Positions 14,324 through 62,974 are shown, counted from the first letter of the stretch. The stretch is DNA of 64,000 nt from an uncultured delta proteobacterium (GCA_963816145.1 CAWFJP010000002.1:282669-346668), one strand, 5' to 3'. Notes: generated from the letters alone by a model not told the origin. Numbers and translations: made by a program.

Positions 14324-15325
14324 ATGAAGTATTGGTTTACGACATCGATAGCGGTTGGCTTGGCACTCGCGATCACCGGTTCCGGAGTTTCGCTCCAAGC
14401 CGCTGAATTGACGCCGGCGAACATCCGCATGGATTTTATCATCGGTGGCAAGCATGCGCCCTGGTACGTCGCCTTGGAAAAAGGTTTCTATGCCAAGCGC
14501 GGCTTGGCAGCGACGATTCAGGCGAGCACGGGTTCGGCGGATACCGTGCGCATTGTCGGTTCCGGCGGCGCCGACTTCGGCTTTGCCGATGCCGCGACCA
14601 TGATCGTTGCCAGGTCCCGCGGCACACCGGTGCAAGCCGCGGCGCAGTTCGGTTATGTCGGCGCGACGATCTTGTGGCGCGATGAGGGCGTGATCAAAAG
14701 CATCAAGGACCTCCCCGGCAAGTCGTGGGCCATCAGCCCCGGCCAGGCGCAGTGGTATCTGATGCCGGCCTACGCGCGCATCAATAAGATCGATTTCAAA
14801 GCAATCAAGATTCAGGAAACCGCGGCGCCTATCCAACCGGCGGCGTTGGCGACTAAGAAGGCCGACTTCATCATCATGTACCGCGCATCCAACGATGAGG
14901 TTGCCGAGCAGGCGGCGGCGAAGGTCGGCGTCAAGCTCACCCGCGTGTTTATGAAAGACACCGGCCTGGATATTTACGGCACCAGCCTGATCGTCAAGGA
15001 CGAAGACGTCAAGAAACGGCCGGAATTCGTGCGCGCTTACGTTGAAGGGACGTTGGAAGGACTGCGCTACGCGCGCGACAACCAGGAAGAGGCGCTGAAA
15101 ATCCTGCTTAAGCACAAACCCGAGCTCGACTCGGCGCTGACCACGCAGCAGCTCAAGAACGCGCTCACCGAAGTGTTCCTGCCGCTGGAATCGGTCAACG
15201 TCGGCATGGGCTACATGAAGCCGGAGATCATGGAGAAGACCGTCAGGACGGTGAATGACTACTTCGATGTCGGCCGCAAGGTCGCGGCCAAGGAAGTTTA
15301 TACCAATCAATTTGTCAAGCGTTGA
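14324..15325 (+). CDS. NMT1/THI5-like ABC transporter substrate-binding protein
   Basis: 333 aa with signal peptide MKYWFTTSIAVGLALAITGSGVSLQA. Located between the permease and ATPase genes. Confidence 0.75.
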   Translation: MKYWFTTSIAVGLALAITGSGVSLQAAELTPANIRMDFIIGGKHAPWYVALEKGFYAKRGLAATIQASTGSADTVRIVGSGGADFGFADAATMIVARSRGTPVQAAAQFGYVGATILWRDEGVIKSIKDLPGKSWAISPGQAQWYLMPAYARINKIDFKAIKIQETAAPIQPAALATKKADFIIMYRASNDEVAEQAAAKVGVKLTRVFMKDTGLDIYGTSLIVKDEDVKKRPEFVRAYVEGTLEGLRYARDNQEEALKILLKHKPELDSALTTQQLKNALTEVFLPLESVNVGMGYMKPEIMEKTVRTVNDYFDVGRKVAAKEVYTNQFVKR

Positions 15326-16232: not shown

Positions 16233-17276
16233 ATGGCACCTCCAAAAGGACTCACCTACGCTCAGGCTGGCGTTAGCATCGAAGCCGGCGATGAATTGGT
16301 GCGGCGCATCGGCCCCATCGCGAAGCGAACCAAGGTGCCCGGCGTGCTCGCCGGCGTCGGCGGTTTCAGCGCGCTGTTCGACCTCAAATCGCGCGGCTAC
16401 CGCAACCCTGTTTTGGTTTCCTCCACCGACGGCGTCGGTACCAAGCTCAAGATCGCCTTTCAAACCGGCATTCATGACACCATCGGCATCGATTTAGTTG
16501 CCATGGGCGTCAACGATATTTTGACCCAGGGCGCGGCGCCGCTATTTTTCTTGGACTACTTTGTCTGCGGCAAGCTCGACGTAGAAATCACCGAAGCAGT
16601 GATGCGCGGTATCGCCGCCGGCTGCCGCCAGGCTGGCTGTGCGCTGATCGGTGGCGAGACTGCCGAGCATCCCGGCGATTTTTCGAAAGGCGAGTACGAT
16701 CTCGCCGGCTTCATCGTCGGGGTTTTGGAGAAAAAGCGGATTATCGATTCGGCGGCGATCGTTCCGGGCGATGTTTTGATCGGCATTCCGTCCAGCGGAT
16801 TGCACAGTAACGGCTATTCCTTGGCGCGCAAGGTTTTGCTCGAACGGGGCGGATTGAAACTTCACCGTCGTATGGCCGAGCTCAGTCGTAAACTCGGTGA
16901 GGAACTGCTCGAACCGACGCGGATTTACGCCAAAATCACCAAGAAGTTGTTCGGCGAGTTTCGCATCAAAGGCGTGGCGCATATCACCGGCGGCGGTATC
17001 ACGGGGAATCTGCCGAGAGTGTTGCCGCAAGGGCGGCACGCGATAATCCAACGGGCGAGCTGGCCGGTGCCGCCGGTTTTCAATTTAATTCAAAAAATTG
17101 GTGCGGTTAGCCAGGCTGAGATGGACGCGACGTTCAATATGGGCCTCGGCATGATTCTCGTCGTGGCGAAAAAGGACGCCGACCGGGTTGTCGGCGTGCT
17201 GCAACGCATGCGCGAGCGCTGCTTTGTTATCGGCGAGGTTCGCCAAGGATCGAAGGGCGCGACGATTCGTTCGTAA
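16233..17276 (+). CDS. purM: phosphoribosylformylglycinamidine cyclo-ligase (AIR synthetase)
   Basis: LTYAQAGVSIEAGDELV, GGFSALFDL, VSSTDGVGTKL, GGETAE and HITGGG motifs; 347 aa. Confidence 0.92.
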   Translation: MAPPKGLTYAQAGVSIEAGDELVRRIGPIAKRTKVPGVLAGVGGFSALFDLKSRGYRNPVLVSSTDGVGTKLKIAFQTGIHDTIGIDLVAMGVNDILTQGAAPLFFLDYFVCGKLDVEITEAVMRGIAAGCRQAGCALIGGETAEHPGDFSKGEYDLAGFIVGVLEKKRIIDSAAIVPGDVLIGIPSSGLHSNGYSLARKVLLERGGLKLHRRMAELSRKLGEELLEPTRIYAKITKKLFGEFRIKGVAHITGGGITGNLPRVLPQGRHAIIQRASWPVPPVFNLIQKIGAVSQAEMDATFNMGLGMILVVAKKDADRVVGVLQRMRERCFVIGEVRQGSKGATIRS

Positions 17277-26553: not shown

Positions 26554-26843
26554 AAGCCAAGCTGGCGCTCTACACGCGGCGGGATTGTTGTTTGTGCGAC
26601 GAGATGAAAGCGGCGATTCGACAAGCCGCCGCCGCGGCATCGTTCGATTTCGAGGAGATCGACATCGATACCAACCGAGAGCTGCAAGCGCGTTTTAACG
26701 ATCAAGTGCCGGTGCTCTTCATCGACGGACGCAAGGCGTTCAAATACCGCGTCACCGCCAAACAGCTGGCAAATCGAATCAGCCGAAAACGTTCGAGACT
26801 TTTCACGGGGCTCGCGAGTTTACTGGGAAAGGGGTCATCATGA
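26550..26843 (+). CDS. glutaredoxin-like (DUF836/thioredoxin-fold) protein
   Basis: LALYTRRDCCLCDEMK..VPVLFIDG; 97 aa. ATGA overlaps with both neighbours. Confidence 0.65.
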   Translation: MKAKLALYTRRDCCLCDEMKAAIRQAAAAASFDFEEIDIDTNRELQARFNDQVPVLFIDGRKAFKYRVTAKQLANRISRKRSRLFTGLASLLGKGSS

Positions 26844-27841
26844 ACGCAAAGCGTCTTCCGCTCTTCCTGCTGATCGTAGTGTTGACTCAAGCGCGCCTAA
26901 CCTCGGCCGCCGATCGTCTGATCGGCGCACAGTCGGCGCGGGTCATGTCTCAATCGATGCCGTGGATCGCCGAGGAAACCGGCATTTTTCGGAAGTACAA
27001 TTTAGAATTTCCGCTGGTCTACATCGGCACCTCGCCGCTGGCGACGGCGGCGATGTTGGGTGGCGAGGCGCAGCTCTTGATCGACGGCGGGGTCGGTTTG
27101 GTGCGCACGGTGGTGGGCGGTAACAACGATCTGGTGTTCATCGCCGGCATCAAGAATCATTTGACCCAGAGCATACTCGCCAAGCCGGAGATCAAACGAC
27201 TGGAAGATTTGCGCGGCAAGAAGATCGGCGTCACGCGGATCGGCGCGACGACGCATTATTTCGCGATTCAGGCTTTCAAGCGGCGCGGCATGGAAGCGGG
27301 CAAGGATTATTCCATGATTCAGACCGGCGGCGCGCCGGAGATGTTGGCGGCGCTCCTGTCGGGCGCCATTGATGCCGGGACCATGTCGGCGCCCTGGGAT
27401 GCCCGGGCGATTTCCCAAGGCTATGGTTACGTTGTCTATGGCCCCGATCTGGCCATCCCGCAAGTGGCCGTGTCGTTCATCACGCGGCGTTCTTTTATTG
27501 CGCAAAACTCGCCGCTGCTCGGCCGTTTCATGCGCGCCATGGCCGAGGCCGCAAAGATTCTCCATACTGATAAAGAAATTGTTTTCAAAGTCCTGAGCAA
27601 ATATCTGCGCATTGACGATCGCAAGGTGCTCGAGCAAGCCTATAGCGCTGAGATCAAAGCTCTCGAGCCGCGCATGGAGTTGCGCCTCGAAGCGGTCCAG
27701 GCGATCCTCGACGACATTGCGCCCACCGATGCGCGGGCGCGGAAATACAAACCGCAGGAACTTTACGACCGGCGCTACTTGGACGAAATGGAAAAGAGCG
27801 GGTTCATGGACAAGTTATGGAGCGGGGCGGTGGCGCGATGA
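26840..27841 (+). CDS. NMT1/THI5-like ABC transporter substrate-binding protein
   Basis: 333 aa with signal peptide MNAKRLPLFLLIVVLTQARLTSA. Family resemblance to 1015..1992, 14324..15325 and 61940..62974. Confidence 0.72.
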   Translation: MNAKRLPLFLLIVVLTQARLTSAADRLIGAQSARVMSQSMPWIAEETGIFRKYNLEFPLVYIGTSPLATAAMLGGEAQLLIDGGVGLVRTVVGGNNDLVFIAGIKNHLTQSILAKPEIKRLEDLRGKKIGVTRIGATTHYFAIQAFKRRGMEAGKDYSMIQTGGAPEMLAALLSGAIDAGTMSAPWDARAISQGYGYVVYGPDLAIPQVAVSFITRRSFIAQNSPLLGRFMRAMAEAAKILHTDKEIVFKVLSKYLRIDDRKVLEQAYSAEIKALEPRMELRLEAVQAILDDIAPTDARARKYKPQELYDRRYLDEMEKSGFMDKLWSGAVAR

Positions 27842-46251: not shown

Positions 46252-46491
46252 TGCGCTGGGGCCGCGCGCCCGCAGTGATCGTTTCAAATTCGCGCAGCCG
46301 CTGAGGCCTTTTAATTTGTTGAATTTAGGGTGGGCATACGTTACTTTGACCACGCCTCTGGATAGGCTTGACGTAGACGGTGGAGAACTCGCGCTTGGTT
46401 TGCGGACGCGCTTAGACTACTGCTATGCGTCACACGCGATCTAATGGCGCCCATAGAAATTTTTTTAGAGCACGGTAGGAGGTTTTTTCTG

Positions 46492-48717
46492 ATGGCATCA
46501 ACGAACCAAGTCGTCGGTAATCCAACCCCAAGAATCGAAGGCGAACTCAAGGTCAGCGGTCAGGCCAAGTATGCGGTGGACGTGACCTTGCCCGGTATGC
46601 TCTGGGGCAAATTGCTGCGCAGCCCGATCGCCTCGGGTAAAATCAAGCGTATCGATGCCAGCAAGGCGGAAAAACTCAAAGGCGTGCGTGCGATTGTCAC
46701 GGGAGCGGATTGCTCGGGCCTAAAAATCGGCCGCAGACTCTATGACATGCCGATCATCGCCGACGGCGAAGTGCGCTTCATCGGTGAAAAGGTTGTGGCG
46801 GTGGCGGCGGACAGCGAGGACATTGCCGAAGAGGCGTTGAATCTGATCGAGGTCGAGTATGAAGAGACCGAACCCTTGCTCGATCCGGTCGAAGCGCTCA
46901 AGCCGGGGGCGAAACTCCTTCATCCCGATGTCATGAGTTACAAAGGGTTACCCAATCCGCTCAAGGAGCCGACCAACGATTTTGTCTACGTCACTTGGGG
47001 CAAAGGCGATCCTGAGGCCGGATTTCGCCAGGCGGACGTGATCGTCGAAAACACTTTTACCACGCCGGTCGTGCATCAGAGTTACATCGAGCCCCATTCC
47101 TGTGTCGTCAGCACTGCGGCCGACGGTTCGGCGGAATTCTGGTCGTGCAGCAAAGTGCCCTACGGCGTGCGCGAACAAGTCGCCAACGCGCTCAAGCTGC
47201 CGCAAGAAAAACTCAACTTTAACCCCGTCTATATCGGGGGTGACTTCGGCGGCAAGGGCGATTTCATGGATCTTGCCGTGGTTTATCTCTTGTCCAAGAA
47301 AGCCGGACGGCCGGTCAAGATGGTAATGGACTACGAAGAGGAATTCACCGCGGGCAATCCGCGGCACGCGTCAATCATCCACGTTAAAACCGGCGTAAAA
47401 AAAGACGGCACCCTGGTCGCACACCGCATGAGTTTTATTTTCGACAGCGGCGCCTACGGCGCATTTAAACCCAACGCCTTTCTCAACGGCCCGCACCTGT
47501 CCGCTGGGCCGTACAAGATTCCTCACGTATTTATCGAGGAACATATGGTCTACACCAACAAGATCCCCTGCGGCCATATGCGCTCGCCTGGCGACCCCCA
47601 GGGATTCTTCGCTAATGAAAGTCAATTGGACATGATCGCTAAAAAGATTGGCATGGACCCGATCAAGTTGCGCCAGAAAAACCTCATGCACGACGGCGAT
47701 ATCGATCCGACCGGCGAGGAGTATAGTTACATCAAAACCGACGAGACGCTCAAGAAAGCGCTGGACGACTCGGGCTATCAAAAACCCAAGCCGAAAAACG
47801 TTGGACGCGGTATCGCGCTGGTGCAGTGGACGCCCGCCGGCGGGACAGGCACGGTCGCGATCTCGATCGATGAGAAAAGCGTGGCGACGATTTCTTCCGC
47901 CATGGCCGATCAGGGCGCGGGCACTTACACCGTGCTCAGCGAAATCGTCGCCGAAGAGCTCAAGATCCCGTTGAGCCAAATCAAAACTCAGCAACTGGAC
48001 ACGCAGAATGGCGTAAAGGATACCGGGGTCGGCGGCAGCCGGGCGACACGCGTTTACGGCACGGCGGGTTATCAAGCGGCGATCAAGGCCGTCAATGCGA
48101 TTAAACAAGCGGCCGCGAGTCAGATGGGCGTGCCGGCAGATCAGATCATCCTCGCCAAGGGCGCGGCGCTGCATCCGCGCATGGAGCGCCGCTTGACCTA
48201 CGGCGAGATCGTCAAGGCGAACGGCGGGCCAATCGCGGTGGATGCCACGTTCAACGACAACAAGAAAATTCATGCCGCCTCCATGTGCGTTCAGGTGGCG
48301 GAGGTGGAAGTGGACCCCGAAACGGGTCGGGTGGAGCTCAAGAAATTCACTTCGACTCACAACACCGGCACCGTGCTCAATCCGCTCATGCACCAGGGCC
48401 AGATTGAAGGCGCCAGCATGACCGGCATCGGCTACACGCTGATGGAGGAAGTGATCATCAACGACGGTAAAGTCGCGACGACCCACTTCGGCGAGTACAA
48501 GATCCCCACCATCAAGGATGTTCCGGTATTCAAAGGCTCGGTTTCGGAAGCACCGCACGGAGCGGGCCCGTATGACAGCATGCCGATCGGCGAGACCGGT
48601 AATATTCCGACGGCGGCCGCCATCGCCAATGCGGTGGAAGACGCCTGCGGTGTGCGCATCACCAGCCTGCCGATTACAGCGGAGAAGATCTACCAAGCGC
48701 TGCACGGCGCCAAGTGA
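46492..48717 (+). CDS. xanthine dehydrogenase/aldehyde oxidase family molybdopterin-binding subunit
   Basis: ATG 46492 with AGGAGG upstream. N-terminal GNPTPRIEGELKVSGQAKYAVD, and C-terminal ..GEYKIPT..D.P..APHGAGPYD..IGE typical of CoxL/XdhB-like large subunits. Confidence 0.85.
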   Translation: MASTNQVVGNPTPRIEGELKVSGQAKYAVDVTLPGMLWGKLLRSPIASGKIKRIDASKAEKLKGVRAIVTGADCSGLKIGRRLYDMPIIADGEVRFIGEKVVAVAADSEDIAEEALNLIEVEYEETEPLLDPVEALKPGAKLLHPDVMSYKGLPNPLKEPTNDFVYVTWGKGDPEAGFRQADVIVENTFTTPVVHQSYIEPHSCVVSTAADGSAEFWSCSKVPYGVREQVANALKLPQEKLNFNPVYIGGDFGGKGDFMDLAVVYLLSKKAGRPVKMVMDYEEEFTAGNPRHASIIHVKTGVKKDGTLVAHRMSFIFDSGAYGAFKPNAFLNGPHLSAGPYKIPHVFIEEHMVYTNKIPCGHMRSPGDPQGFFANESQLDMIAKKIGMDPIKLRQKNLMHDGDIDPTGEEYSYIKTDETLKKALDDSGYQKPKPKNVGRGIALVQWTPAGGTGTVAISIDEKSVATISSAMADQGAGTYTVLSEIVAEELKIPLSQIKTQQLDTQNGVKDTGVGGSRATRVYGTAGYQAAIKAVNAIKQAAASQMGVPADQIILAKGAALHPRMERRLTYGEIVKANGGPIAVDATFNDNKKIHAASMCVQVAEVEVDPETGRVELKKFTSTHNTGTVLNPLMHQGQIEGASMTGIGYTLMEEVIINDGKVATTHFGEYKIPTIKDVPVFKGSVSEAPHGAGPYDSMPIGETGNIPTAAAIANAVEDACGVRITSLPITAEKIYQALHGAK

Positions 48718-48720
48718 TGC

Positions 48721-49269
48721 ATGGCGTCATTTCCGGGAACCATCGATCTCGGAAAGTTTCGGGTCGTTTATGAAGAAGAGCGGGAGCGGCCGTCCGATGG
48801 AACGGACGGCTACCTCCTGCAGCAGCGCGCCGTCATTCGCCTCAACGAAGAGCTGGTCAAACTCGAACAGCGCGACGACTACACGGTCTACTGCGACGAC
48901 GAGAATTTCAAGAAACAGCACGGCAAGCGGCCGTCGCCGCTGCAATATTTCATCGCCTCGATCGGTTTCTGCATGTTCAGCCAGTTCAAGCGGCTAGCCG
49001 CCAAAGCGGAAGTCGCCGTCGACGACCTCGAAATGGAGCTGCGCATGACCTACGACTTGAGCGGTAAGTTTCCCATCAAAGATTTTTCCGATGCCGCCCA
49101 AGGAATCGCCTACGTTTTCAAAATCAAAAGCGCCGCGCCGCTAGAAAAAGTGCTGCCCGTGGTCCAGGCCGCCGACAAAGGCTGCCATACGGTGAATTCG
49201 ATGCGTAAACGCGTGCCGGTGTCGGGGAGATTCGTTCTCAACGAATGCATCTATGATTTAACCGATTGA
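48721..49269 (+). CDS. OsmC/Ohr-family protein
   Basis: 182 aa with two family-typical Cys contexts (ASIGFCMFSQ and ADKGCHTVNS). Confidence 0.7.
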   Translation: MASFPGTIDLGKFRVVYEEERERPSDGTDGYLLQQRAVIRLNEELVKLEQRDDYTVYCDDENFKKQHGKRPSPLQYFIASIGFCMFSQFKRLAAKAEVAVDDLEMELRMTYDLSGKFPIKDFSDAAQGIAYVFKIKSAAPLEKVLPVVQAADKGCHTVNSMRKRVPVSGRFVLNECIYDLTD

Positions 49270-49365: not shown

Positions 49366-49917
49366 ATGGCAAAACTGACGGTGGGCGACCAATTTCCCCC
49401 GGCAAAACTAAACGACATCGACGGTCTTGCCGTCAACTTCCCCGCCGTATTCAAAAACGCCCCAGCGACGGTGGTGTTTTTCTACCGCGGCCGCTGGTGA
49501 CCCTGGTGCCGGGCCCAGGTGACGGCCTTTGTTTACGAATGGGAGCGGTACCTAGAAGGAAACGTACAGATCCTCGGCATCAGCGTCGAGCCACCGGAGG
49601 AGGGCAAGAAACTTAAAGAGCGCGTGACGCGCGACTGCCAGGAAGACCGTCCGCATATTTCGCTCGATCCCTACCCGGTGCGTTTGCTCAGCGATCCCGA
49701 TGCGACGTTGATCCGCGCGTGCGGCACGGAAAACGAAGGCCACTGGGCCGGAACGATCGCTGCGCCGGTGACCTATGTCGTCGGTCCCAGCGGTCTGGTG
49801 AAATGGGCCTACGTCAGCGATAGCGCCGCCGACCGGCCGAGTCCGGTGGCATTGGCCAAAGCGGCGTGCGCAGTGGCGGCGGGTCACGCGCCACCCGCAA
49901 CCTATCCGGGGAAATAG
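49366..49917 (+). CDS. peroxiredoxin-like-2 / AhpC-TSA thioredoxin-fold redoxin with in-frame TGA (candidate Sec, UxxC)
   Basis: ATG 49366 (AAGGAA upstream), then 44 sense codons to TGA 49498..49500. The same frame continues into ORF 49519..49917. The joined sequence reads VVFFYRGRW-[TGA]-PWC. Confidence 0.6.
49502..49528 (+). promoter_or_regulatory. GC-rich stem-loops 3' of TGA 49498 (weak SECIS candidate)
   Basis: Alternative 5-bp stems CCTGG(49502-06)/CCAGG(49515-19) or GGGCC(49511-15)/GGCCT(49524-28) with loop CAGGTGAC. Not evaluated thermodynamically. Confidence 0.25.
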
Positions 49918-58948: not shown

Positions 58949-58987
58949 TTCGACCGCGCGCCGAAAACGATCTAAGAGAGGATTATC

Positions 58988-59579
58988 ATGTTGCGAATCA
59001 AGGGAGCATCGAAGGAAACCGCGCCGAAAGAAGTGCAAGAGGTCTTTGCGGCGCAGGAAAAACAATACGGCACGATCTTGAACACCGCGAAGGTCTACGG
59101 CCTTGCGCCCGACGATCCAGCAGGGTGTGCAGGCGCTCCAAGCCGGCATCGTGGCGTCGGGCTTGATCAGCCCGGAGTTGCGCCACTTGTTGTGCATGAA
59201 GGCCGCCAGTATCAACGGTTGTCCGTATTGACTGGACATCAACGCATCCAGTGGGATGCAACATGGTGCGTCGGCGGAAAAGGTTGAGGCTGCGTTGGGG
59301 GATTACAAAAAGAATCCGATCTTCTCCTTGCGGGAGAAGCTGGCGCTGGAGCTATGCGAGCGCATGACCTACACCAGCAAACGGGTCACTGACCGCTTTT
59401 TCAATCGGCTCAAGAAGCAATTCTCAGAGGAAGAACTCGTCGAACTGGCGGCGGTCATCGCGCTGGAGAATTTTCGCAGCAAGTTCAATCCGGTGTTCGC
59501 CGTCGAGGCGCATGGCTTTTGCCCGGTGCCTTTGGTCAAAGAAGTCGCCGCCGAAGCGGCGAGCAAGTTTCACGAATGA
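58988..59579 (+). CDS. AhpD-like carboxymuconolactone decarboxylase (CMD) family protein with in-frame TGA at the second Cys of CxxC (candidate Sec) and an apparent 1-nt frameshift near 59102..59108
   Basis: N-terminal frame (58988..) reads MLRIKGASKETAPKEVQEVFAAQEKQYGTILNTAKVYGL. After a 1-nt shift it reads RPTIQQGVQALQAGIVASGLISPELRHLLCMKAASINGCPY-[TGA 59229..59231]-LDINASSGMQHGASAEKVEAAL..., continuing into ORF 59256..59579. Confidence 0.55.
59244..59259 (+). promoter_or_regulatory. SECIS-like hairpin 12 nt downstream of TGA 59229
   Basis: GCATCC-AGTG-GGATGC is a perfect 6-bp stem with a GU-containing tetraloop. Its position resembles the minimal bacterial SECIS, about 11 nt after UGA. 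Confidence 0.4.
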
Positions 59580-59690: not shown

Positions 59691-59780
59691 TTAGAAACCA
59701 TGGCTATTGGAACCTTCATGACCTCCTTAGAAAATAGATGTGCAGGTATGATCCGGGCAGCGAATTGGCACGAGGTTTCC

Positions 59781-59847
59781 GTCATACCGGCGAAAGCCGG
59801 TATCCATCCCCCTCCCGCCCCTGGATGCCGGCTTTCGCCGGCATGAC
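59781..59847. repeat. double-hairpin intergenic repeat, family D (most compact copy)
   Basis: GTCATACCGGCGAAAGCCGGTATCCA - TCCCCCTCCCGCCCC - TGGATGCCGGCTTTCGCCGGCATGAC. Confidence 0.75.
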
Positions 59848-59975
59848 GAATCAAAGAAAAAACCATGGAGCGGTGGGATGGCTGCGATTTCATACTCTGT
59901 AGACGAGCGTAAGCTCATGAACGCTTTGTGGTGAGTCAAATGGTCTTAGTTAAACGCGAGAGGTTAGGCAGACTG

Positions 59976-60952
59976 ATGTTCGTACGAAATGTCATTCGCA
60001 ATACGTTGATTGTTCTGGGACTGTTGTTGCCGCTGCAAACGGCGCATGGCGCTTCCGCGCCGACCAAAGTCACGATTCACGTGCCGTCGAAGAGCTTGTC
60101 GATCATGCCGTACTACTTCGGCAAGGACAAAGGCTTCTTTGCCGCGGAGCAGATCGAGCCGCAGTTGATCATGATGGCGCCGCCGACGGCGATCGCGGCG
60201 ATGGTGGCGGGCGAGTTGGATTTTTCTTCGACCACCGGCGCGGCGACCTCGGCGATCATGCGCGGCTTGCCGATTCGAAGAATCTTTTACGTTCAGTCCG
60301 ATCCTGTTCATGTGCTACTCGCCCAGCCGGAGATCAAGTCAGTTCAGGATCTGGTCGGCAAAACGTCGGCGTCACCGCGCTGACCGACGCCGTGGGCATG
60401 TCGGCCAATGTGATCCTGCGCGCTCACGGGATCGAAGCCGGCAAGGTGACTCTGCTCGCGTGTGCAGGTCACGGATAATGCGATCAAGTCTCTCACCAGC
60501 AAACGCATCGCCGCGACTTGCTGGCGCCGCCCTATGTGGAGGAGCTGGAGGCAAAGGGATATGTGCATCTGGCAGATGCGCGGACTTATGCGCCGCTGAG
60601 CTTTATTGGATTGGTTACTTCGATCGAAACGATGAAAAAATCGCCGCAAAAAGTCCAAGGCATGATTGCCGCGCTGCATCGGACGATGAATTATATTCTC
60701 AATCCCGCTAACCGAAGGGAAGTCGTCGAGTATGTCTCGACCTACCATAAGCTCGATCTAGCGCTGGCCGAAAAGGCGATGGCTGCGCAGATGTTGGGTT
60801 ACAGCAAAGACGGCACCAAGCCGCGCGCCGCGGTGGAAAAGGAAATCGAGATTTACCGTGAGGCATTGAAGGTCGCGAAAGCGTTTACGCCGGACGATTT
60901 GGAAGACATGAGCTTTTTGCGCAAGGCGCAGGGAGCCGTGCAAGCGCGGTAG
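59976..60952 (+). pseudogene. NMT1/THI5-like ABC substrate-binding protein, disrupted by at least three frameshifts (about 60360, 60450-60475, 60505-60520)
   Basis: Frame 0 reads MFVRNVIRNTLIVLGLLLPLQTAHG...DLVGK. After a run of four A (60360..60363) the next frame reads NVGVTALTDAVGMSANVILRAHGIEAGKVTLL. A further shift gives RVQVTDNAIKSLTSKRIAA, then LLAPPYVEELEAKGY... continues to 60952. Confidence 0.65.
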
Positions 60953-61939: not shown

Positions 61940-62974
61940 ATGAAAATGACCAAGCTGCTTTGCAATCCCTGTTTGATCATTTGCGCAGTTCTGCTGATTC
62001 TCTCAAGTCGGGACGGCCGAGCGCAATCGACCCCGAAGCCCATCGCGCTGAATATGGTTTACAACAATTTAAGTGTCGGCTCCGGCCCGCTCTGGGTTGC
62101 GCAAAATGCCGGCATTTTCCAAAAACATGGCCTCGATATGAGGTTGAGCCTGGCGCGTGGGAGCTTGTCGGTTCAAGCCATGCTGGCTGGCTCTTTCCCA
62201 GTCGGCATCGTCAGCGCATCGGGGATAGTCAGCAGTCACTTGAGCGGAGCGCGCTTGAAGATTGTCGCCGGTGTGATCAATACCTTGCTCTACACCGTCA
62301 TTGCCGCGCCGGACATCACCTCCGGCAGCCAACTAAAAGGCAAGCGCGTCGGTATCAGCCGATTCAATGATTCATCTGAGCTGGCTACCCGGATCGCGGC
62401 AAAGGAGCTCGGCCTCGACCCGGACCGTGACATCGCCATGGTTCAAGTCGGCAGTGGTCCGGATCGTTTTAATGCCTTGCGCGCCGGGGCGATACAGGCG
62501 GCTGTCGTCGGGCCGGCCGAGGTGGTTCGCGGTAAAAAAGAGGGTTTTAACACACTGATCGATCTCACGACGAAGAACATCGAATACCAAGGGTCGGTGA
62601 TGGCGATGACCGAGGATCTCATTGCGCAAGAAGATACGGCATTGAGGATCATACGGGCGATGGTTGAAGGTCTGCACTTTTTTAAGACCCGCAGAGACGA
62701 GTCGGTTCGCATCATGAGCGCCTATTTGAAGGGCGCCGACATTGAGGCGATGAAGCAAGGATGGTCCGCATACGCGGAACGCATCTTCCCGGTCAAGCCC
62801 TATCCTTCGGCAAAAGGCATGGAACTGGTGATCCGCGAGGTCGCAGCACAGAATCCGGCCGCAGCCAAAGTAACGCCCGAACGACTTTTCGATATGCGTT
62901 TGGTTGAACGCATCGATCGCAGTGGCTTTATCGATAACCTGTACCGCGAACGGCCGATGACGATCACCAAATGA
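61940..62974 (+). CDS. NMT1/THI5-like ABC transporter substrate-binding protein
   Basis: 344 aa with signal peptide MKMTKLLCNPCLIICAVLLILSS. Starts 2 nt after the VOC gene stop. Confidence 0.72.
   Translation: MKMTKLLCNPCLIICAVLLILSSRDGRAQSTPKPIALNMVYNNLSVGSGPLWVAQNAGIFQKHGLDMRLSLARGSLSVQAMLAGSFPVGIVSASGIVSSHLSGARLKIVAGVINTLLYTVIAAPDITSGSQLKGKRVGISRFNDSSELATRIAAKELGLDPDRDIAMVQVGSGPDRFNALRAGAIQAAVVGPAEVVRGKKEGFNTLIDLTTKNIEYQGSVMAMTEDLIAQEDTALRIIRAMVEGLHFFKTRRDESVRIMSAYLKGADIEAMKQGWSAYAERIFPVKPYPSAKGMELVIREVAAQNPAAAKVTPERLFDMRLVERIDRSGFIDNLYRERPMTITK

Follow-up and report, generated by a model that had tools for sequence, protein, structure and literature searches.

AhpD-like proteins with a CxxU motif (COG2128/YciW) are a selenoprotein family that came out of the Sargasso Sea and GOS metagenomes; they have been recognized since 2005 and are among the most abundant selenoproteins in ocean metagenomes (PMC1088965; PMC2398784). 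The family is also covered by reviews (PMC9312934, PMC13188914), in line with what the preliminary description of the locus studied here had said. The bacterial SECIS (bSECIS) elements that accompany such genes follow published rules: an apical loop of 3-9 nt, an upper stem of 4-16 bp, a G at loop position 1 or 2, a distance of 16-37 nt between UGA and loop, and a minimum free energy of at most -7.5 kcal/mol (PMC13188914). Here we describe a locus in a 64-kb stretch of DNA (the whole of which we call the window) that is supported, by sequence comparison, as a genuine selenocysteine-encoding gene of this AhpD-like (CxxU) redox family in soil Binatia. The family is already known and the Binatia gene adds a member to it. 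Taken as a whole, the locus in all likelihood encodes a Sec-containing AhpD/CMD oxidoreductase of 196 residues, in a copy where an extra G has been introduced by an assembly error.

Organization of the locus

In the window, an ORF with its ATG at 58988 opens with MLRIKGASKETAPKEVQEVFAAQEKQYGTILNTAKVYGL and then leaves the frame. The second frame reads (L)RPTIQQGVQALQ...INGCPY-TGA-LDINASSGMQHGAS... and runs into the ORF 59256-59579 (107 aa); within it, the stretch before the TGA is LRPTIQQGVQALQAGIVASGLISPELRHLLCMKAASINGCPY and the one after it LDINASSG, so that the peptide around the predicted Sec site is AASINGCPYU-LDINASSGMQHGASAEK. Owing to the extra G, the window copy has no frame that is uninterrupted apart from the Sec codon. 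Once this base is removed, the protein matches those of three relatives (L012, L016, and L017) with 100% identity. The Shine-Dalgarno-like sequence listed in Table 1 has its counterpart in relatives, which carry GGAGG-like motifs at the equivalent position.

Table 1. Coordinates, in the window, of the AhpD-like gene and of other genes discussed in the text
Feature	Position	Strand	Description and basis
Whole gene	58988..59579	+	196 codons after removal of one base: 80, then UGA (Sec) as codon 81, then 115, then the stop
Shine-Dalgarno-like sequence AGAGAGGA	58975..58982	+	5 nt 5' of ATG 58988; sequence reading
Predicted redox motif Cys78-Pro-Tyr-Sec81 (TGT CCG TAT TGA)	59220..59231	+	Sec codon is TGA 59229-59231
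Candidate SECIS hairpin, stem GCAUCC/GGAUGC, apical loop AGUG 59250-59253	59244..59259	+	Folding and conservation
Extra G, frame-shifting (GGC CTT G CGC CCG)	59105..59105	+	Alignment to relatives
True stop codon TGA	59577..59579	+	Sequence; terminal stops of relatives
NMT1/SsuA-like gene	59928..60952	+	Split into ORFs of 151 and 144 aa
Prx-like (AhpC/TSA) gene	49366..49917	+	TGA 49498-49500 in FFYRGRW-U-PWC (UxxC)
OsmC-like ORF	48721..49269	+	Uninterrupted, 182 aa, no in-frame TGA
Xanthine-dehydrogenase-family Mo enzyme	46444..48717		Upstream of the OsmC-like ORF

The neighborhood of the gene provides no firm functional lead. An Amidohydro_2 gene lies upstream in 21 of 66 loci and an NMT1/SsuA-like binding protein downstream in 19 of 62, this synteny being limited in both cases to the subclade of the window. 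Between 52537 and 57629, the window encodes sulfopyruvate-decarboxylase-like alpha and TPP-binding ORFs, an EamA transporter, a cyclase, an asparaginase-2, and a sulfotransferase-family protein, and it contains further NMT1/SsuA-like binding proteins at 964-1992, 14324-15325, 26840-27841, and 61940-62974. Taken together, these genes hint that the Sec gene lies in a context of organosulfur or amide uptake. The intergenic spacer also contains a 27-nt inverted repeat (CGTCATACCGGCGAAAGCCGGTATCCA / TGGATGCCGGCTTTCGCCGGCATGACG, 59780-59848) which looks like a small REP/MITE-like insertion; much of the spacer around it is missing in the near-identical contigs L012 and L014.

Family assignment and predicted structure

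The joined protein matches the Pfam CMD domain (PF02627) across the TGA, with an E-value of 1.8e-10 and 41 bits for a cut-off of 23, and its CxxU occupies the position of the family's CxxC, INGCPYU aligning with the INGCxxC of solved AhpD-like structures. The reading of the locus as an AhpD/CMD-family gene with the TGA at the second Cys, put forward in the preliminary description, is thereby borne out. AlphaFold predicts an all-helical AhpD fold (core pLDDT 83-97) with a helix starting at residue 79, so that the CxxU would cap this helix. The Foldseek matches include the Bmp8 debrominase, Pseudomonas aeruginosa AhpD, and Atu0492, and those to Cys-type AhpD-like structures reach a probability of 1.0 and target TM-scores of up to 0.89. 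The protein does not belong with canonical AhpD: the structures 1gu9 and 1lw1 are matched weakly (query TM-score 0.45-0.49, E >0.7), and TIGR00777, the profile of canonical Mycobacterium tuberculosis AhpD, gave no match to the window protein.

Two other models help to place the protein within the family. TIGR01926 (peroxidase-related enzyme), the model cited for the AhpD-like selenoprotein family, is matched with 42.4 bits, below its cut-off of 81.8, which makes the window protein a homolog but not a member. The best-scoring curated model is NF053654, with an end-to-end alignment (residues 1-173 on model positions 1-172 of 179; E 9e-47) and 159 bits for a cut-off of 310. Since all the sequences tested score below this cut-off, including other subclades and one Cys-type relative (138-170 bits), we regard the window clade as a sister clade of the NF053654 equivalog and not as part of it. 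NCBI annotates the fragments of the clade as hypothetical proteins.

Many Binatia MAGs contain two Sec-AhpD-like paralogs, both with TGA (e.g., L025 and L082, L030 and L075, L024 and L072, among L021-L094). The second paralogous clade, RTAHINGCPY-U-IDSNASGAM, has a 5-bp stem with the loop CGGGGC, compared with 6 bp and AGUG in the window, and this stem scores -4.7 kcal/mol on its own.

Conservation of the UGA codon

Scanning one genome per GTDB species, we obtained 80 loci. TGA occupies codon 81 in 74 of these species-representative loci, which come mainly from Binatia MAGs and in some cases from Chloroflexota/Dehalococcoidia; TGT or TGC is found at this codon in five distant homologs (L095 and L097-L100, 32-35% identity). 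A comparison of orthologous loci had been proposed in the preliminary description, for which TGC at this codon and no conserved hairpin would have spoken against selenocysteine; the relatives showed TGA in these 74 loci and a conserved hairpin. Protein searches retrieved more than 600 relatives, nearly all of them C-terminal fragments of 107 aa, the product expected of gene callers that stop at an in-frame TGA; in the DNA around these relatives, an 80-codon ORF ends at the TGA and is in frame with the 107-aa ORF. An exhaustive search of 1.8 billion cluster representatives gave a similar picture, since among the matches listed at identities of at least 50% almost all cover an N- or a C-terminal piece of the protein. 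Identity to the nearest full-length relatives is 30-39%; in their alignment, as proposed for Cys-type CMD homologs, at least 90% of the aligned sequences have Cys in the Sec column, which is more strongly conserved than the column of the motif's first Cys. The in-frame UGA is thus aligned with the Cys of non-selenoprotein homologs, and its placement on the second Cys of INGCxxC, as first described, agrees with both the distant homologs and the solved structures.

The two halves of the gene evolve under purifying selection in a single continuous frame, the differences being overwhelmingly synonymous: with respect to L014, the synonymous to nonsynonymous counts are 24:2 upstream of the TGA and 31:0 downstream. 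Together with the conservation of the TGA, this leads us to reject one of the options initially considered, namely a pseudogene in which the TGA is a nonsense mutation. The terminal stop in 73 relatives is TGA in 49, TAG in 14, and TAA in 10. The codon is not reassigned, since the same gene usually terminates at TGA; these organisms use it as a functional stop, so that the internal TGA needs a local signal. A few full-length public calls carry W at the Sec codon (among them P0001-P0003 and P0127), which is due to code-4 gene models (JGI callers, short contigs).

A conserved hairpin after the UGA

The hairpin GCATCC-AGTG-GGATGC begins 12 nt after the TGA, exactly where the preliminary description had located it, and has a perfect 6-bp stem with -8.1 kcal/mol when folded alone. 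With a 4-nt loop (AGUG) that has G at position 2 followed by U, 6 bp, and 18 nt between UGA and loop, it satisfies the bSECIS rules. Its size and spacing had been called SECIS-like, which is right with respect to these rules, although the spacing of about 11 nt then invoked was the wrong measure, the rule being set on the UGA-to-loop distance. Taken in a single sequence, such a hairpin is weak evidence: a rule-fitting perfect hairpin of at least 6 bp follows 4.6% of all the TGA triplets of the window, and the z-score of the local 62-nt fold is -1.2. What gives it weight is its conservation in relatives. All 69 distinct sequences form the 5-bp core, compared with pairing in 17-53% of cells in slid controls; one core pair exchanges A-U, G-U, and G-C, and one distant sequence has a swap from C-G to G-C. 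There is little compensatory covariation (3 cells in 2 pairs), and conserved amino acids are encoded where the hairpin lies, so the support for the stem is mostly conservation.

Codon usage gives a further view of this region. Across 76 intact genes, synonymous diversity reaches its minimum for the whole gene at codons 86-91 (0.125 vs. a mean of 0.52). At the hairpin, Ala86 is encoded by GCA or GCG only, Ser87 by TCC in 74 of 76 genes, Ser88 by AGT (64/64), and Gly89 by GGG (52/52), whereas Ser, Gly, and Ala columns elsewhere in the gene use three or four codons. An RNA-level constraint overlies the coding constraint exactly at the hairpin, which is, as both synonymous diversity and universal pairing indicate, conserved beyond what the protein requires.

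A lower stem of the SECIS, suggested by the single-sequence fold, was dropped since it is not conserved in relatives. Rfam searches of the window at the gathering threshold returned tRNA-Asn alone and no SECIS family. One of the Cys-type homologs, in a Gammaproteobacteria MAG (L095:3226-3270), has a perfect 6-bp hairpin (AAUGCC-GCCAC-GGCAUU) after its TGT, at the place equivalent to that of the SECIS; it could be due to chance or be a relic of a Sec ancestor.

The extra base in the window

The window reads GGCCTTGCGCCCG where relatives have GGCCTT-CGCCCG, the one extra base being G 59105; it is the 1-nt indel that the preliminary description had inferred near 59102..59108 from the break of the frame. 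The nearest relatives have either GGC CTT CGC CCG (L012, L017) or GGC TTG CGC CCG (L016, L018-L020). The extra G occurs in the window and L011 only and is absent from L012, L013, and L014-L020; nine of ten other contigs with identical C-terminal 107 aa are intact, including all seven short-read contigs. L011, which shares the extra G, is a 669-kb contig with a Flye-style name from a long-read-style assembly. Its coding sequence differs from that of the window at five positions, all of them third-position synonymous changes in the corrected frame, which makes an inherited frameshift implausible; the recurrence of the G without plausible common ancestry then indicates a systematic error. As judged from the sequences, CTTG may have arisen from the merging of CTT and TTG, two synonymous Leu alleles that co-occur. 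Among the species representatives, frameshifts in the gene affect 4 of 20 Flye-style long-read MAG contigs vs. 1 of 54 others (Fisher p = 0.017). The frameshifted copies listed are L040, L083, L091, L092, L011, and the window, and L103, from the same long-read series, shows dozens of 1-nt indels in 5 kb.

The neighboring NMT1/SsuA-like gene is split in the window by three window-private 1-nt indels (60366, 60460, and 60518). It is intact, with 321 aa, in L011, L013, L016, and L017, and compared with L017 the window has 23 synonymous and 2 nonsynonymous (conservative) differences, a substitution pattern that points to local assembly errors. Speaking against an artefact, the window is clean elsewhere, with one private indel in 5.4 kb (47-52.4 kb), so that these errors would have to be local. 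An exact-pattern scan of metagenome contigs for the alleles with and without the inserted base gave no matches but also missed the known JGI contig L017, which makes it uninformative. We conclude that the extra G is very probably a consensus or polishing error of long-read metagenome assembly and that the organism probably has an intact gene. This had been one of the options initially proposed, and the intact relatives, the synonymous-only differences, and the NMT1 indels make it the best supported. The option of an N-terminally truncated gene starting at an internal GTG or TTG did not find support, as the 80 N-terminal codons are conserved in relatives, where they stay in frame and evolve under purifying selection; a designed internal start of either kind is rejected on the same grounds.

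Search for selenocysteine machinery and a second UGA-containing gene

We found none of selA, selB, selC, and selD within the 64-kb window, where the lone tRNA is tRNA-Asn and the EF-like GTPase is TypA. An AIRS-domain ORF (16233-17276) considered as a SelD candidate proved to be PurM (TIGR00878, 431 bits). No tRNA-Sec was found in the window or in 60 related loci. The search for further CxxU/UxxC TGA genes in the flanks of 114 loci gave shadow-frame noise apart from one gene of the window, which encodes an AhpC/TSA (Prx-like) protein with a UxxC motif (Table 1). Prx-like UxxC proteins are a published selenoprotein family. Nearly all homologs of this gene are post-TGA fragments, mostly of 132-133 aa, and its diverged loci (L101-L114) keep the TGA, an in-frame N-terminus of 44 codons, and ~30 invariant nucleotides after the TGA. 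The presence of this second conserved UGA gene offers indirect, sequence-level support for Sec use in the same organism. A candidate SECIS with the loop AGGU lies 16 nt after the UGA of the Prx-like gene. In one of its homologs, P0121, the Sec site is occupied by L. The Prx-like gene is directly preceded by an OsmC-like ORF, itself located downstream of a Mo enzyme, that matches NF041052, 'OsmC-related (seleno)protein', with 113 bits for a cut-off of 95.

Proposed mechanism and alternative explanations

We propose that the product of the locus is a thiol-selenol oxidoreductase of AhpD/CMD fold (COG2128/YciW-type), 196 residues long, with Cys78-Pro-Tyr-Sec81 as its active site. By the standard bacterial mechanism, the mRNA hairpin would bind SelB-GTP-Sec-tRNA(Sec) and bring it to the ribosome, where UGA codon 81 would be read as selenocysteine, and termination would take place at the gene's own UGA stop (59577), which is devoid of such a hairpin. 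Sec81, at the helix N-terminus and in the family's best-conserved Cys column, would be the presumed nucleophile attacking an oxidized substrate or partner, and Cys78 would resolve the resulting selenenylsulfide, by analogy with the CxxC of AhpD-like peroxidase or reductase proteins. In M. tuberculosis AhpD the second Cys is the nucleophile, which fits the higher conservation of the Sec column.

Two alternatives take the extra G as real. One of them accepts the family and sees in the window copy a genuine, very recent 1-nt insertion, leaving a fresh pseudogene or a truncated product from TTG 59103. It would be in keeping with the presence of the G in two separately assembled contigs, with the NMT1 gene being broken too in the window, and with the few private indels in the rest of the window. 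We nevertheless consider it rather unlikely: the changes between the window and L011, all synonymous in the intact frame, leave no time for decay, two independent identical insertions are themselves unlikely, the G is found only in long-read-style contigs and in none of the seven short-read contigs with the same protein, and three NMT1 frameshifts alongside a dN/dS far below 1 are more readily explained by sequencing error than by decay. The other alternative, that the cell bypasses the G by programmed +1 frameshifting at CUU-G, with tRNA-Leu slipping from CUU to UUG as at the prfB site, appears extremely improbable. More than 90 relatives need no shift to encode the protein, the A site presents neither a slow nor a stop codon (GCG is common), and CTTG would be explained by the merging of two co-occurring synonymous alleles, even if GGC CUU G CGC does permit the re-pairing that restores the conserved ...YGL-RPTIQ... 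and the allele recurs in two assemblies. If it were true, one short mRNA would need two recoding events, a +1 frameshift and UGA-to-Sec, to yield an active enzyme. In a milder version of such a reading, the Binatia clade would be an obligately Sec-containing, uncurated subfamily whose public annotations are all split fragments.

Other alternatives concern the UGA itself. Its decoding as Trp, Cys, or Gly, through near-cognate or suppressor decoding or through reassignment, would agree with the lack of visible Sec machinery in the 64-kb window and with the JGI full-length products that have W at codon 81. These W calls are, however, accounted for by code-4 models on short contigs, and such decoding is very unlikely given that 49 of 73 relatives employ TGA as a working terminal stop, that a conserved hairpin obeying the SECIS rules stands exactly where SelB needs one, and that the codon replaces a catalytic Cys, the classic signature of Sec. 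Hardly any credence can be given to the TGA as a true stop, either between two small genes (80 and 107 aa) or as a family-wide nonsense pseudogene, although every public gene caller annotates the locus in that way. The TGA lies inside one CMD domain and one helical fold, the spacing (80 codons, TGA, same frame) is fixed in more than 70 species, both halves are under purifying selection, and the protein sequence encoded by the eight codons from the TGA to the called ATG is conserved. Selenocysteine at codon 81, with an intact gene in the organism, thus stands as our preferred reading.

Implications

These results leave the understanding of Sec decoding unchanged, and their value lies mainly in the correction of annotations and in the record of Sec use in Binatia. 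Binatia, a little-studied uncultured soil phylum, would be added to the users of AhpD-like CxxU selenoproteins; our literature search retrieved no paper naming both 'selenocysteine' and 'Binatia', and nothing usable on selenium use in Binatia/Binatota or on Bmp8. Hundreds of public entries are split into "hypothetical proteins" of 80 and 107 aa, or have Trp called at the Sec site, and some of the split entries are labeled "alkylhydroperoxidase family enzyme" by JGI; a dedicated model would repair these annotations. The locus also provides what appears to be a clean example of how a recurrent 1-nt insertion in long-read metagenome assemblies can imitate a pseudogene.

Comparison with known systems

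The candidate SECIS of the window resembles the fdhF-type SECIS of Escherichia coli in that both are stem-loops that directly follow the UGA on its 3' side inside the ORF, have a small apical loop containing G then U, and are presumed to bind SelB, but its stem is much shorter (5-6 bp, -8.1 kcal/mol) and lacks a conserved lower stem. At the protein level, the all-helical AhpD fold and the aligned (IN)GCxxC are shared with Bmp8 (6ohi), P. aeruginosa PA0269 AhpD (7xw1, 2ijc, 2o4d), and Atu0492 (2gmy), which are only ~23% identical and have Cys instead of Sec. The substrates of these solved proteins, tetrabromopyrrole for Bmp8 and peroxiredoxin or peroxide for AhpD, are not implied to be those of the window protein. 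Like NF053654, 'YciW-related (seleno)protein' (GroundWater_YciW), the window protein is part of a family with both Sec and Cys forms. The published AhpD-like selenoproteins have the same CMD/AhpD core with an N-terminal extension, Sec in place of the second Cys of the motif to give CxxU, a SECIS directly downstream inside the coding sequence, and a predicted thiol-dependent redox function. The setting differs, since the window clade belongs to Binatia and some Chloroflexota of soil and groundwater and not to marine plankton.
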